From a virus (taxonomy: Duplodnaviria > Heunggongvirae > Uroviricota > Caudoviricetes): 44,570 nt of DNA. Shown one piece after another: positions 2,804 through 22,935 of this stretch. Location of the stretch: the IMG/VR virus record IMGVR_UViG_2877973648_000004; one strand, written 5' to 3'. Under the pieces are notes generated by a model. The model ran no database searches, was not told where the DNA came from, and was given only the letters and a program-made list of their open reading frames with translations. A program made the position numbers and the translations under genes. The number at the start of each line of letters is the position of its first letter. Positions within the stretch are counted from its first letter, which is position 1.

Positions 2804-3397
2804 TTATGAATAATTGAAAATGATGTTCAGATGGGATGGGGCAATTTTGTTGATTGAACACTCCAGTTGTTTATTGCCCCACGATGCGAGCGGATCTCCG
2901 CAGTAGGACGCGCCAGCAAGCGAATACTTGATCGTTGTTTGTGGCGCATTTATCCGCCAGGTAAATGGCCACTCGTCACCGTTAAGCGCATCACCGCATA
3001 CTGACATGCCACTCATAGCGGGCCGGAACTGTGTGATAGTGATGGTATAACCAAGAGCTGCAGCCACCCGGATGTAATAATCGCGGTTCAGGCCGCCGGT
3101 GCTGATTAACTTTGCCACCACGGCGCGCTGGCGATCGCTGACGCCACCGGATTCACCAATCGCACAATCATCTGGTAACCCCAGAGAGCTTTCCCATTCT
3201 GACAACATTACCGTCGCTGTAGGGGGAAAAGCACCAGTAATCAGGCTTTGCGCATCGTTGTCAGAACGCTGAAACGCGCTGCCCAGTGCCCGTAATACCG
3301 CAGCCTGTACCGTTTTTTGCGATCTGGGCCACGCCCTGCCCGTCGGCAGCAACGCGCCAAGCGCACCGGCATAATCATTTTTTGAAAAGAGGCTCAT
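2804..3397 (-). CDS. Baseplate/tail protein (Mu gp48-like)
   Basis: 197 aa, between baseplate J-like gene and fibre gene; start overlaps the upstream gene end. Confidence 0.5.
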   Translation of the reverse strand: MSLFSKNDYAGALGALLPTGRAWPRSQKTVQAAVLRALGSAFQRSDNDAQSLITGAFPPTATVMLSEWESSLGLPDDCAIGESGGVSDRQRAVVAKLISTGGLNRDYYIRVAAALGYTITITQFRPAMSGMSVCGDALNGDEWPFTWRINAPQTTIKYSLAGASYCGDPLASWGNKQLECSINKIAPSHLNIIFNYS

Positions 3398-18669: not shown

Positions 18670-18932
18670 CAGAATCTAAACCTCGCTGGTTTCCGGGGAC
18701 GAGAGATAATCCCCAGTTGCGCCTGCAGAAGTTGAATCAGGGCCAGCAGATCAGCCAGGGTGCTTTGCTGATAGGACACTGATCGCGTCCCGTCTCCCTG
18801 CGTATAGGAAAACGAAACACCGTGGCTCCCGGTTGCTAAATCAATGTACGCCTGCTGAGCTTTCGCAAGCGCATCCCTGAGCTGATCGTCAGTCATTGCG
18901 CCGGCAAGCAGGCTGGTGTTCCGGTTGAACAT
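18669..18932 (-). CDS. Head-tail joining protein (lambda gpW-like)
   Basis: 87 aa between terminase large subunit and portal, as for lambda W. Confidence 0.6.
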   Translation of the reverse strand: MFNRNTSLLAGAMTDDQLRDALAKAQQAYIDLATGSHGVSFSYTQGDGTRSVSYQQSTLADLLALIQLLQAQLGIISRPRKPARFRF

Positions 18933-18940
18933 GATTTTCC

Positions 18941-21070
18941 TTATTTCGGCAGGAGTTGCGATATTCGCTTACGTTTGACCGGCGCTGGTTCTTCAATAAC
19001 CGCACCCGGCAGCTCGTAATTGATTTTTTCTTCCTGTCCAACTGGCGCTGGCAGGAACTTATCCGGATCGGCTTCGAGGTTGGCGGCCCGGACGTTGAGT
19101 TTTAACCCCATATGTTTGAGACCGCACAGCGCGGCATAGCTGTAAACGAGGCAGTCAAGCGCTTCGTTAGCTCGTCCTGGTATTGCTTCCCAGATACTGT
19201 ACCGCTGCCCGGAAATGACTTTGTAAACCAGTCGCTCCGCCAGCAGCTGATTGAAGTACCCGAGATCGCGATCGTCAGGAAAATGCATATAACCCGCAGC
19301 GGCGGCGCCAGGTTTGGGTGGCTCAAGATGCAGGCGACCGCGTATCACGTCTTTCGCTGAGTTAACCCCCAGAATGACAGGGCGGAAACTGGCTTTGCTT
19401 TTCGATGATGGTCGTTTGGTCGGCCAGACAGGATTGCGTTTACCTCCCTGTGCAGACTCCCCCTTAATTGCCCAGACACGACGGCCAAGACGCTCTTTGG
19501 CGAATTCGTATACCTTCTGCGTATGGTGGCCACCGGAGTCCATGCACGTTGCCATGATATTCAGGCCGCGCCCGTCACCACGTCGCCAGATCTGTTTCAG
19601 GTATGCATCCAGTCGCTTCCAGGGTTCTTCCGTCTCAAGGTCACCATAAATAACGTCATGCGCGACCGACCACGATTCTTCATCTCTCCCCCAGCCGGTG
19701 ATCGTAATTTCGAAGCGATCGTCCTGGGTATCAACTCCAGCTGTTAACAATGCCACCCCGTCCGGAACGACGGCCGGAAATATTTCCCGGCGCGCCAGCA
19801 GAACATCAACAGGGAGCTGTTTCCCATGATTAGGTCGGTGCGGAAGCCCCATCTGGGTATTCCACCACGCCTGTTCCTTATCCGGATCGCCCTTCGCATC
19901 GATATATTTTTTCGCAATATCCGACGGCTTATCTTTTTGCCAGGGGCTGAAAAGCTTGGATGCCTGGTACCCCGCGTGGTGGTTATCGACTGCCTCCTTT
20001 CCACAGGAGGGGCAGATTGCGCGATAGACCGCATGCCGTTCCGACTCTGACCATTGCCAGACCTTTTCAACGCTGCCCTCGTCTGCCGCCCGCCAGGCAA
20101 GGTCATAATCCATCAGCGGTGAGTGCCGCTCCCCGCAGCACTCAAATGGGCGCGTCTGATGCCATCGAATAGTGTGCAGAGCTCTGAGGCGCTGTCCTTC
20201 GGACCAGCCACTACCACAGCATTCGCAATAGAGCATCGCCGATTTAGTCAGGTGTTTATCTCCCTCTTTCGGCCACTGAACGTGTTTGAAAAAGTCGGGG
20301 AACTGGCGGTGGCCACAGTGCGGGCAAACCACAGATGCCCGGCGCTGATCGGAGTCGGCGTAGCTGTCAGCAATGCGGCTCTCATCCTCCACCGTCGGCG
20401 AACAGGCGCGTACAGACAGCCAGGTCAGGCCAAATGTCGCTGTACGCTCTTCGGCCAGCGCAATTGGATCGCCTTCGCGGGTTATCGGGTACTTGTCCAC
20501 TTCATCCGCCAGCAGGACACGAATCGGACGACGCGCAAGGTTATCAGGGCTACCAGCACCCGCCAGCGCCAGAAATCCGCCAGTGAATGCCTTGTAAAGA
20601 ATGGTTTCTTTCGAGCTTTTCTGTTTCGAATCACCGATGATTTTACGCAGTACCGGCGTCACCCTTACCAGCGGGCTAATACGCTCTTTCGAAAACTGTT
20701 CAGCGGCTTCTTCTTTCGGCTGCAGCAGCAGTATCGGACAAGGATCGAGGTGGGCAAAATAGCCAAAAAGGTTTTCCAGCAGTGCTGTCTTCATCAACTG
20801 GGTACAGCACATTACAGTGATGATATGAACCCCGGACTCCGTCGCGGCAAGCATCGGTCCGCGGGCAATTTCTACCGTCGATGTTTCCCAGTTTCCCGAA
20901 GTGCTCCCAGCCTCTTTTGCCAGCTTACGATAGTCATCTGCCCACTGCGGCACACTGATACGCGGCGGGGGTGTCCAGCCTTTGCGGACGCTTAATTCAA
21001 GACGCTCAATCTTCTGCCGGGTTAAACTCTGGCTCTCCGAGGACTGAGATGTGTTTGTGGACATGTTCAA
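18941..21070 (-). CDS. Terminase large subunit (lambda gpA-like)
   Basis: 709 aa; motifs VVCPHCGH and NEALDC resemble lambda A; true start may be slightly downstream since it overlaps the small subunit by about 60 nt. Confidence 0.85.
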   Translation of the reverse strand: MNMSTNTSQSSESQSLTRQKIERLELSVRKGWTPPPRISVPQWADDYRKLAKEAGSTSGNWETSTVEIARGPMLAATESGVHIITVMCCTQLMKTALLENLFGYFAHLDPCPILLLQPKEEAAEQFSKERISPLVRVTPVLRKIIGDSKQKSSKETILYKAFTGGFLALAGAGSPDNLARRPIRVLLADEVDKYPITREGDPIALAEERTATFGLTWLSVRACSPTVEDESRIADSYADSDQRRASVVCPHCGHRQFPDFFKHVQWPKEGDKHLTKSAMLYCECCGSGWSEGQRLRALHTIRWHQTRPFECCGERHSPLMDYDLAWRAADEGSVEKVWQWSESERHAVYRAICPSCGKEAVDNHHAGYQASKLFSPWQKDKPSDIAKKYIDAKGDPDKEQAWWNTQMGLPHRPNHGKQLPVDVLLARREIFPAVVPDGVALLTAGVDTQDDRFEITITGWGRDEESWSVAHDVIYGDLETEEPWKRLDAYLKQIWRRGDGRGLNIMATCMDSGGHHTQKVYEFAKERLGRRVWAIKGESAQGGKRNPVWPTKRPSSKSKASFRPVILGVNSAKDVIRGRLHLEPPKPGAAAAGYMHFPDDRDLGYFNQLLAERLVYKVISGQRYSIWEAIPGRANEALDCLVYSYAALCGLKHMGLKLNVRAANLEADPDKFLPAPVGQEEKINYELPGAVIEEPAPVKRKRISQLLPK

Positions 21071-21575
21071 TCAGCACCTCTGTCATCCTGTCCGCCGGTA
21101 CATCCAGATCAGCAGCCATTAGCGGCGCCACCCTGGACGGCCAGTTAAGCCAGGCATCACGCTGTTGGCGAAAGGCGTTGAATAAAACCTCCTCGGCTGC
21201 TGTCAGCTCAATAAGCTGGCCGCTGTCTTTTTCATACTGCAGCTTTGCCTGCAGGGCCATGTAATTCTCGCGGATACGTCCCGCTTCCTCTCTCGAAAGA
21301 TCTGCCCCTTCAGTGAGCATTATCTGGCGGACAGTTTTATTGATTTCATCACCGTCATCATCGTTATCGCTAACGACGGGAGTTTTCTTTTTCTTCGCGT
21401 TCGAGGCGCGCGGGTCTTTGCCATCGCGGTTTTTCTTCAATGCCGCATCGCTGGCCTCTACGTCAATCAGGTCTCCGTCCATCACAATGAAGCGCCCGGC
21501 TTTAATCCACCGACCAATTGTTTTGCGATCCACACCTGAATGTTGTGCGTACTGACTCTGGTTCATCGTGGTCAT
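21006..21575 (-). CDS. Terminase small subunit (Nu1-like)
   Basis: 189 aa with N-terminal HTH-like segment; immediately downstream of a repeat array. Confidence 0.7.
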   Translation of the reverse strand: MTTMNQSQYAQHSGVDRKTIGRWIKAGRFIVMDGDLIDVEASDAALKKNRDGKDPRASNAKKKKTPVVSDNDDDGDEINKTVRQIMLTEGADLSREEAGRIRENYMALQAKLQYEKDSGQLIELTAAEEVLFNAFRQQRDAWLNWPSRVAPLMAADLDVPADRMTEVLIEHVHKHISVLGEPEFNPAED

Positions 21576-21723
21576 GGGACATCACCTGGGACATTTTCTG
21601 GGGTGGGACATTCGCCTGGGACATTTTTGCCATGTCCCACCAGAATGTCCCACTGGAATAAACTGGAATAGCCAGAGCTGGCGAGGTGTCCGTAATGATC
21701 GCCAGAGGTGGGACATGGGACAC
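21575..21723. repeat. cos-region-like array of 8-bp TGGGACAT repeats (putative small-terminase binding sites)
   Basis: About five direct copies of TGGGACAT, two inverted copies ATGTCCCA and a variant, directly upstream of the small terminase gene. Confidence 0.5.
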
Positions 21724-21812
21724 AAATCTGAAAGTTGTAGCTAGGAAAACACCGCGGCGCGCAATGCCCGTGCCTTACAAAAGGCTCAGGAAGGACCCAA
21801 AACCCCTGGGGG

Positions 21813-22454
21813 CTATCTGGCCGAGCTGATCGCCTCAGCAATCGCCTGGTGCAGCGCTGAGGGTAACAATGCGTTGACCATGGTGTTTGCCCTGTCCATA
21901 TAGCCGAGCGTTGGTTTGACTGGAAGCGCGTCTCCAAACCGAATGAGCAATTTTGGTGCAGGTTGCTTAATCTTGTCTCTGCGCGTGCCGTTCGGAGAAC
22001 GTTTTGCCCGTTTCTTCCCTTTTTTGATTTTCGGCTTTTTTCTCTGCCACACGGCATTCACGCCACCAACGTCACCAATAAATACGTTTGGCTTTGCTTT
22101 GAGCTGAGAGAGCTTATTACGCGGCAGGTTGCCGTATTTATTAAGCTTTATGTCTTTCGGATTAAGCAAAGCACCACCATTAAGCTTGTGCGCTCCGCCG
22201 AACTCGAAGGGTTCAAGGTAGCCAGCAGCAGTATCACGAACAAACACCTTCGCACGAAGGCTGTTTTTCCTGGCACCAACTGACCCTACCGATTTAACTG
22301 TAAAAGGTGTTGGATTATCCAGATTCCGCTCAAATGCTGTTTTTTGGGCCGCTTCTATCTGGCGAACCACTTTAGTCATAGCCTGGGCAGTCGCAAACGG
22401 TATTTGCTTCTGCAGCTGTCTTAACTGACTGGAAAGGTCCTTAAGCGTTGCCAT
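21813..22454 (-). CDS. Hypothetical protein (Lys-rich C-terminal half)
   Basis: 213 aa with AGGAGG RBS; located between the lysis cassette and the cos/terminase region. Confidence 0.45.
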   Translation of the reverse strand: MATLKDLSSQLRQLQKQIPFATAQAMTKVVRQIEAAQKTAFERNLDNPTPFTVKSVGSVGARKNSLRAKVFVRDTAAGYLEPFEFGGAHKLNGGALLNPKDIKLNKYGNLPRNKLSQLKAKPNVFIGDVGGVNAVWQRKKPKIKKGKKRAKRSPNGTRRDKIKQPAPKLLIRFGDALPVKPTLGYMDRANTMVNALLPSALHQAIAEAISSAR

Positions 22455-22507: not shown

Positions 22508-22530
22508 AATAAAAAACCGCCCGTAGGCGG
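22508..22530 (-). terminator. Rho-independent terminator
   Basis: Minus strand ccgcc-tacg-ggcgg followed by ttttttatt, immediately after the stop of the 134-aa gene. Confidence 0.55.
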
Positions 22531-22935
22531 TTAGTCGAACATTTTATCAAGTTGCTTAGCAAGAGCTCGGTTAAACAGCTCCTTCGAAACTGTCATCAGC
22601 GTGCCCATACTGGCATCTTTGAATCCGGTTTTTAATGTTGCCCAAACCTCTTTGTTACGGAGAGCATCCAAGAAGTCATGCCCCATCGCGGTCAATCGCA
22701 AGGGCATTACAGCCCAGTGAGTCATTCCGTCTAAAGACTGAATAGCACCAAAGCCGGGCTCCCCATCACTCCTGATAATCAGCCCTCTATCCTCAAGCAA
22801 ACGCATATGAAACACAAATGTGTCAGTTTCACAATTGAACCCTAAATCATTTAATCGAATAATATCGGTATCAGGTGAATCCGATGCCTCGAAAGCCTCG
22901 AGCAAACCTTTAAGGTATTCTTGATCTATTTGCAT
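22531..22935 (-). CDS. Hypothetical protein (AT-rich moron after lysis cassette)
   Basis: 134 aa, GGAGGGG RBS, visibly lower GC than flanking genes, own terminator. Confidence 0.45.
   Translation of the reverse strand: MQIDQEYLKGLLEAFEASDSPDTDIIRLNDLGFNCETDTFVFHMRLLEDRGLIIRSDGEPGFGAIQSLDGMTHWAVMPLRLTAMGHDFLDALRNKEVWATLKTGFKDASMGTLMTVSKELFNRALAKQLDKMFD

Follow-up and report, generated by a model that had tools for sequence, protein, structure and literature searches.

Only three packaging specificities, those of lambda, 21 and N15, are on record among lambda-like cos phages; Feiss and colleagues have commented on how surprisingly little diversity of packaging specificity has been observed (PMC4669245). 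In lambda, the cosB subsite has the order R3-I1-R2-R1, in which R2 runs opposite to R3 and R1; R3 lies at bp 50-65 in lambda and at bp 48-60 in N15 (PMC9026076). The cosQ subsite is 7 bp long and highly conserved (PMC4669245). Lambda and phage 21 have in common cosQ, cosN and the C-terminal part of the small terminase (TerS), which binds the large terminase (TerL), and differ in cosB and in the TerS N-terminal domain (PMC9026076, PMC4669245); in Nu1, the lambda TerS, the recognition helix comprises residues 17-24 and the wing residues 31-39 (PMC9026076). Here we compare with these systems a 44,570-bp stretch of viral DNA (IMG/VR record IMGVR_UViG_2877973648_000004; the whole stretch is hereafter the window), which is an Escherichia coli prophage, and specifically an array of short repeats at positions 21575-21723, directly upstream of its terS gene. 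We consider it highly probable that this array is the cosB subsite of a lambda-type cos, read on the minus strand in the order cosQ, cosN, linker, cosB, terS. A sequence-only reading of the window had put the array forward as a candidate cosB, a proposal that gains support because a cosQ-cosN block adjoins the array, its geometry is that of lambda, its 8-mers are conserved, its repeat word co-varies with the TerS N terminus, and satellites without terminase genes carry it.

The closest cultured relatives are Serratia phage vB_SspM_BZS1 (MT843275; BZS1 below) and Citrobacter phage phiNP (TerL 48% identical), with which the window shares its cosQ-cosN block. For BZS1, PhageTerm analysis of virion reads and PCR across the prophage cos gave a 12-nt 5′ overhang, GCATTGCGCGCC, and the paper describes no cosB (PMC7556043). 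A further point of comparison is offered by the Rpp-type phage-inducible chromosomal islands of E. coli (PICIs; EcCICFT073 and relatives), satellites with a helper-like cosQ-cosN that are packaged by cos phages; they are without the phage R repeats, and the Rpp protein redirects TerS (PMC9026076).

An array of 8-mers upstream of terS

The exact 8-mer TGGGACAT occurs seven times on the two strands of the window, always inside 21575-21716. Five plus-strand copies start at 21575, 21587, 21604, 21617 and 21709, and two minus-strand copies lie at 21632-21639 and 21645-21652; exact counting thus bears out the five direct and two inverted copies of the sequence-only reading. In 100 dinucleotide shuffles of the whole window the mean was 1.49 copies and the maximum 6, so that none reached seven. 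There is in addition an eighth, near-identical copy, TGGGACAC at 21716-21723, which is the single one-mismatch copy in the region and overlaps the copy at 21709 to form a doublet; outside the region, one-mismatch matches are at chance level (36 found, 34 expected). All copies are therefore contained in 21575-21723, within 150 bp directly upstream of the small-terminase gene, as had been described.

The prophage genes are on the minus strand, on which the repeat reads ATGTCCCA. In this sense orientation the array opens with a direct doublet, after which come 56 bp of spacer, a pair of inverted copies at a 13-bp interval, an A-tract and four direct copies spaced by 13, 17 and 12 bp. A repeat search recovered the same family independently as an inverted repeat with 22-nt arms (21603-21624 and 21632-21653, 7 nt between them), and the two inverted and first two direct copies therefore form one palindromic unit. 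The last copy of the quartet ends on the terS start codon, an overlap that had been noticed before and that amounts to one base, the A of the ATG. An Rfam scan of the intergenic region returned nothing meaningful.

Short-repeat arrays upstream of a gene are typical of operators, and here the terS start codon and the ribosome-binding site are each overlapped by a site. The repeats might thus be operators of a transcriptional regulator, for instance of the late genes or of terS, with no role in packaging. A promoter scan, however, found no sigma-70-like promoter on either strand of 21576-21812, and, as in lambda, a Q antiterminator precedes the late genes; further points against operators arise below, from the spacing, the repeat words and the satellites.

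The array adjoins a predicted cosQ-cosN block

Upstream of the array on the sense strand, the heptamer GGGTCCT (21792-21798, minus strand) is a cosQ-like element that is invariant in 70 relatives and the same as lambda 48473-48479, which we take to be the lambda cosQ. It is separated from the predicted top-strand nick by 24 nt in the window and by 23 nt in lambda. Alignment to the circularised lambda cos recovered the same heptamer and a core rich in GC, together with a T-rich linker that can be aligned to lambda bp 13-45. This linker, GCGGTGTTTTCCTAGCTACAACTTTCAGATTT (21724-21755, minus strand), is conserved between cosN and the array and is common to phages with different repeat words.

Between cosQ and the linker is the predicted cosN cohesive-end 12-mer, GCATTGCGCGCC (21756-21767, minus strand), which would give a 12-nt 5′ overhang identical to that of BZS1. 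The window has a single copy of it, which follows ...GTAAGGCACGG and has the same flanking context as in BZS1; the predicted nicks are at 21768/21767 (sense strand) and 21756/21755 (opposite strand). The GenBank record of BZS1 is linear, starts with GCATTGCGCGCC, ends with ...GGGTCCTTCCCTGCACTTTTGTAAAGCACGG and carries the feature "cosL; left cohesive end" at 1-12. Because the window 12-mer equals the BZS1 cohesive end, we set bp 1 at window position 21767. Two overhang candidates drawn from the lambda alignment, GGCATTGCGCGC and GGGCATTGCGCG, were off by 1-2 nt and were superseded by the BZS1 data. The 12-mer lies 33 bp beyond the end of the array, so the cosN that the sequence-only reading had placed within 21575-21723 is to be sought outside that interval.

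Some metagenome contigs appear to begin near this site. Contigs L071 and L096 (IMG/VR 3300030500_000031 and _000032) start at CCGCGTTG, 2 nt inside the predicted cohesive end; they also end at the same distal base, and a known single-nucleotide polymorphism adjoins their start, so the shared start may be an assembly-graph artefact. The start of contig L031 at ACGGGC was rejected as a physical end because it is a storage-chunk boundary, and L047 and L151 are chunks of one contig.

Site geometry follows lambda without an IHF site

Counted from the cohesive end, the direct doublet falls at bp 45-59, the inverted doublet at bp 116-136 and the direct quartet at bp 144-193, with the terS ATG at bp 193 (the Nu1 ATG of lambda is at 191). 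The first site is thus about 45-50 bp from the end and the middle sites are inverted, which is the site layout of lambda-type cos.

The distal direct doublet, GTGTCCCATGTCCCA (21709-21723, minus strand), consists of two copies offset by 7 bp (bp 45-52 and 52-59), is invariant in relatives and would be the equivalent of R3. The spacer that follows it (21653-21708) is conserved in length and variable in sequence. The inverted copies, ATGTCCCA on the plus strand, lie at 21645-21652 (bp 116-123) and 21632-21639 (bp 129-136) and together form an R2-like inverted doublet. Next comes the A-tract (21625-21631, minus strand; GGCAAAA in the sense orientation), which stands at the centre of the four-site palindrome and is kept as a tract of A5-7 in distant relatives. 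The direct copies of ATGTCCCA, all on the minus strand, are at 21617-21624 (bp 144-151), 21604-21611 (bp 157-164), 21587-21594 (bp 174-181) and 21575-21582 (bp 186-193); the last base of the third begins the Shine-Dalgarno sequence AGGTGA (21582-21587), which is placed between the last two copies. Two smaller features lie in the spacer: a direct repeat at 21652-21670 (TATTCCAGT twice in the sense orientation) that abuts the first inverted site, and a Dam site, GATC, at 21695-21698, which is conserved in the otherwise variable spacer of E. coli-type relatives.

The window shares with lambda the order cosQ, cosN, cosB, terS, terL, the cosQ heptamer, a (here predicted) 12-nt 5′ cohesive end, a gpA-type TerL and the direct/inverted/direct orientation of the sites. 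The differences are also clear. The prophage has eight sites with an 8-9-bp core, arranged as doublets and a quartet, whereas lambda has three 16-bp R sequences; the repeat word is wholly unlike that of lambda; the array has no recognisable I1 site; the predicted cohesive end is GCATTGCGCGCC rather than the GGGCGGCGACCT of lambda; TerS is outside the Pfam family Phage_Nu1; and the prophage tail is of the Mu-like contractile type.

BZS1 and phiNP differ from the window in having a short cosB of three GGTAACAG-type copies and a TerS only about 33% identical to that of the window. This short form, which also occurs in L013 (2560-2900) and L022 and is found at 1-140 of the BZS1 sequence (L209) and 700-810 of the phiNP sequence (L208), resembles the 'simple' cosB of N15, with the terS ATG at bp ~75 (bp 75 in BZS1). 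In L013 and L022, GGTAACA copies run on into the terS coding region, where they encode Gly-Asn repeats of the linker.

The 8-mers are conserved against variable spacers

We aligned 70 distinct sequences of the TGGGACAT class from genomes, IMG/VR and metagenomes. Columns within the motif copies were 0.99 conserved (48 of 63 invariant), compared with 0.77 for the other columns of the array (10 of 86 invariant); as the sequences are related, the Mann-Whitney P value of 4e-17 for this comparison is only indicative. In six E. coli relatives at 83-87% identity, every copy is kept and the spacer is scrambled. More distant arrays in Serratia, Yersinia, Salmonella diarizonae and an unassigned contig, with TerS 57-71% identical and spacers that cannot be aligned, retain the word and the layout, with 5-10 copies, a doublet near bp 45-60 and the central A-tract. 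The alignment indicates selective conservation of the 8-mers.

The number of copies changes through duplication of units: contig L096 carries one more 13-bp unit than L071, inside the inverted block, and five tandem copies are present in L176. Such variation would suit repeats that are by-products of slippage or duplication, or else replication iterons, without a part in packaging. By-products, however, are not expected to be strongly conserved against variable spacers, to retain word and layout at 57-71% TerS identity, or to build the same architecture from different words, and the prophage has lambda-type O/P replication genes elsewhere, which speaks against iterons. We find this explanation scarcely credible.

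The repeat word co-varies with the TerS N terminus

The cosQ-cosN block served as a probe to collect related loci from GTDB genomes (12 loci), IMG/VR (113 stretches) and E. coli genomes. Among the 99 distinct cos regions sharing cosQ-cosN, the dominant repeat word tracks the TerS N terminus without exception. The word TGGGACAT (70 regions, including terS-less satellite copies and one divergent TerS that retains RKTISRWIKAG) goes with the N terminus MTTMNQSQYAQHSGVDRKTIGRWIKAG..., pairing with ..DRKTIGRWIKAG, and GGTAACAG (23 regions) goes with MNQSDFARLHGVSRKTVTMWKSRG..., pairing with ..SRKTVTMWKSRG. The rarer words TTCACAC (three regions) and TTGACAC (one region) accompany ...SGMSRRSFYNWESKQG... 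and ...AGMSRQALYNWESHEG..., paired with ..SRRSFYNWESKQ and ..SRQALYNWESHE, respectively. A fifth word, TTTACAC, was seen on one island (below) and on IMG/VR contig L196. In all classes the first copies lie at bp ~45-65 and inverted copies in mid-array, and the GGTAACAG class also ends on the ATG. The array therefore keeps a fixed distance from cosN whatever its word, which is not a property expected of operators.

The sharpest comparison is between the window and a second, near-identical E. coli prophage, L008, which uses GGTAACAG in place of TGGGACAT. Identity between the two DNAs is 97-100% from the 213-amino-acid (aa) gene upstream of cos through cosN to 21742, falls to 28-60% between ~21735 and ~21211, and is back at 85-97% from 21210 onwards. 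The swapped cassette is thus about 520 bp long, and the sole coding sequence inside it is TerS residues 1 to ~120; the two TerS proteins have the same C-terminal ~70 residues but an identity of only 52% over their first 44 aligned residues. Because the cassette encodes nothing but this part of TerS, no other phage protein can explain the change of word, and a separate regulator acting on operators is disfavoured on the same ground. Conversely, GGTAACAG phages with unrelated TerS C termini (L013, L022, BZS1 and phiNP) share the type of N-terminal DNA-binding domain.

These data also bear on the idea that cos is organised by some other protein that binds the sites in place of TerS, for instance a host factor or the upstream 213-aa protein. 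The 213-aa gene is always directly upstream of cos in the relatives, and another architectural factor is conceivable given that no site for integration host factor (IHF) was found. Yet this gene is 97-100% identical in the window and L008, which differ in word (TGGGACAT against GGTAACAG), and phages that share their hosts use four or five different words, for which no host factor can account. A binder other than TerS is, in our judgement, very unlikely.

The window and L008 reproduce the pattern of the lambda/21 pair through exchange of a cassette of about 520 bp. Beyond that pair, at least four words, TGGGACAT, GGTAACAG, TTCACAC and TTGACAC, are found here on one scaffold, each predicted to mark a separate specificity.

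Satellite islands carry the array without terminase genes

Two E. coli islands of ~17 kb contain cosQ-cosN followed by ~8-10 TGGGACAT/ATGTCCCA copies with no gene behind them. One lies between nfeF and a tRNA-Ile gene in strain EC12, the other between rcnR and thiM in strain 2015C-4136CT1; cos and array occupy 2500-2770 of L009 (18901-19170 of the EC12 island, L014) and 2500-2760 of L011 (~2840-3117 of the other island, L015, on the opposite strand). Both islands encode an integrase, a small helix-turn-helix protein, Icd-like and DUF4222 proteins, a primase, SSB, ProQ and PerC, and the RefSeq annotation of L014 and L015 contains no capsid or terminase genes. By gene content they are cos-type, PICI-like satellites.

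This version of the array was found in only 4 of 5426 complete E. coli genomes. It also occurs in IMG/VR phages L162 and L176, where it precedes a divergent TerS (in L176 followed by TerL and portal genes). Agreement between the island copy and the phage array extends as far as the terS ribosome-binding site and is lost beyond it; up to that point the island array is a copy of a phage array. A terminase-less element that would have to be packaged in trans and keeps exactly cosQ, cosN and the array is what a packaging signal predicts. Operators, in contrast, would have nothing to control in satellites that retain the array with no gene behind it; with the missing promoter, the position of Q, the fixed distance from cosN and the word change that follows TerS alone, the operator explanation becomes highly improbable.

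In comparison with the Rpp-type PICIs, which are without R repeats, the islands described here carry a helper-type array, and a search for an rpp-like open reading frame (ORF) behind the satellite array found none that was plausible. On this comparison, the islands look like cos satellites that copy the helper cosB rather than use an Rpp protein.

On the EC12 island two cos blocks point the same way, at 13617-13900 and 18901-19170, 5.3 kb apart and with different words: the first has six copies of TTTACAC followed by a 49-aa ORF, and the second is the TGGGACAT array. This double cos could mark a dual-specificity satellite or a tandem composite. Separately, three exact copies of TTGCGGGTTA with 21-bp spacing lie at 2941-2992 of L009, ~180 bp after the satellite array, and are also present in L011; they are possibly a satellite origin or another binding site.

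A predicted winged helix-turn-helix in TerS

The terS gene (21006-21575, minus strand) encodes 189 aa and matches PHROG 57 (E 4.6e-36) and no Pfam family. It lies directly upstream of, and overlaps, terL (18941-21070, minus strand), a gpA-type large terminase with ATPase and nuclease domains (PF05876, 2.8e-64; PF20454, 2.2e-78) that is 48% identical to the BZS1 TerL. An AlphaFold2 model built from a 24-sequence alignment has, in residues 1-50, a short strand, helices at 6-13 and 17-26, a beta hairpin at 32-38 and a helix at 39-50 (predicted local distance difference test score ~77), after which come a disordered linker of basic and acidic residues and a C-terminal half made of helices. A winged helix-turn-helix with the recognition helix RKTIGRWIKA is thus predicted for the N-terminal ~50 aa. 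The C-terminal ~70 aa recur in phages of other repeat classes, and their presumed role is to bind TerL.

Foldseek placed the model closest to Xis, the DNA-binding domains of small terminases (7LWR, 7LW0), BldC, RacA and gpNu1 (1J9I; template modelling score 0.58 on the target, root-mean-square deviation 2.7 Å). Xis and BldC, the nearest folds, bind arrays of direct repeats cooperatively, which we take as a lead only. A sequence search of the PDB with TerS returned only spurious matches to RecA and ATPases. RefSeq labels the protein "hypothetical protein", a label that nearly all of the 120 listed database homologues also bear; in effect, this TerS family, which is widespread in enterobacteria, has no annotation.

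Prophage context

The window is 100% identical to a prophage of E. coli strain AREA_C483. Its early region is lambdoid, with RecET, a repressor, O/P-type replication genes, NinG and Q, and is followed by a lysis cassette, a DUF2513 gene, the 213-aa gene (PHROG 1924), the 237-bp intergenic region 21576-21812, terS and terL. Downstream of terL are lambda-like head genes (gpW, portal, S49 protease, and decoration and major capsid proteins) and then the Mu-like tail genes. The 213-aa gene (21813-22454, minus strand) is labelled 'minor tail protein' in PHROG 1924, has no Pfam match and encodes a protein with a very basic C-terminal half. It adjoins cos on the upstream side in every relative, those of Serratia and Yersinia included; BZS1 has a 213/214-aa gene in the same place, and the BZS1 authors likewise remark on a gene immediately upstream of cos (PMC7556043). 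A terminator-like hairpin (AACCGCCTACGGGCGGTT, then a T-run; 22515-22532, minus strand) lies between the DUF2513 gene and the 213-aa gene, within the presumed late transcription unit.

The cos signature was matched in 65 of 5426 complete E. coli genomes. In E. coli HS (L003; NC_009800 2078964-2082324), the cos-terS-terL module directly abuts a truncated integrase beside a tRNA-Ser gene; this prophage lacks its early region and is therefore a remnant. Among cultured phages there was no near nucleotide match to the window, and a search in distant mode gave phiNP only. A nucleotide search of plasmids matched the cos block alone, in two large Klebsiella variicola conjugative plasmids that carry the cosQ-cosN block at 95% identity over 64 bp (NZ_CP103421.1 86969-87032 and NZ_CP063404.1 330490-330553).

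Discussion

By analogy with lambda, packaging at this cos would proceed as follows. During late growth, the winged helix-turn-helix of TerS (residues ~1-50) would bind the 8-bp sites, probably contacting each 8-mer through helix 17-26. TerS on the doublet at bp 45-59, the R3 position, would place the gpA-type TerL on cosN, at a distance of 45 bp, so that the staggered nicks are made accurately. R2 and R1 would have their counterparts in the inverted doublet and the direct quartet, with TerS oligomers folding or wrapping ~150 bp into an initiation complex that would stay on the cos end during DNA translocation. The DNA would be bent without IHF, perhaps through the conserved A-tract. Packaging specificity would then be set by the repeat word together with the TerS N terminus, with cosQ, cosN and the TerS C terminus common to sister phages that have other words.

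Several observations weigh against the assignment of the array to cosB. Its cosN is predicted from an identical sequence in a relative with a TerL of only 48% identity, and no consistent physical ends emerged from 41 metagenome contigs and two Logan contigs. There was no match of at least 8/9 to the IHF consensus WATCAANNNNTTR in the array of the window or of eight relatives, under a scan that did find the lambda I1 at bp 79; because the spacer contains no IHF consensus, a lambda-style IHF hairpin is not supported. N15-type simple cosBs also have no I1 (PMC9026076). For TerS, Foldseek probabilities were 0.77-0.98, yet all E-values exceeded 0.1. Pfam Phage_Nu1 (PF07471) was not matched, the only hits being sub-threshold helix-turn-helix models at E up to 10, in a search in which lambda Nu1 itself scores 2.5e-100, and an hhalign comparison with Nu1 was weak (E 0.0035, probability 9%, residues 4-61). 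The description of the gene as 'Nu1-like' consequently stands for architecture and position (a winged helix-turn-helix, a central helical region and, at the C terminus, a part that binds TerL, all predicted, next to terL) and fails for the sequence family. Finally, part of the co-variation between word and N terminus could be linkage, as the array adjoins the 5′ end of terS.

Going beyond the assignment of the array, and tentatively, for our doubts here slightly outweigh our confidence, we propose a modular cassette of ~520 bp, comprising the array and the TerS N-terminal domain, that is swapped on a constant scaffold of cosQ, cosN, TerS C terminus and TerL, giving at least 4-5 mutually exclusive specificities, with satellites copying the helper word instead of using Rpp. 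If this is true, the cassette specificities exceed the three documented for all lambda-like phages, and the EC12 island, with its TTTACAC and TGGGACAT cos sites, could use helpers of two specificities.

As a kind of element the array is textbook, and the cohesive end of this phage group has already been published for BZS1. What is new, as far as sequence comparison predicts it, is a specificity class of lambda-type cosB with an unusual eight-site layout without an IHF site; in the literature library that was searched, no paper joins the repeat word with "terminase". For annotation, GGGTCCT, 24 nt, GCATTGCGCGCC and a repeat array would together mark the genome ends of widespread enterobacterial prophages, whose cos is unannotated in RefSeq.

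The four or five TerS/cosB pairs form a natural series on one conserved cosQ-cosN-TerL scaffold, each with a short, defined word, and would therefore offer a clean system for three questions about TerS recognition: how a winged helix-turn-helix small terminase reads DNA, what number and geometry of sites are needed without an IHF site, and how specificity evolves through cassette exchange. The satellites that mimic cosB, in turn, suggest a second route of piracy, independent of Rpp.

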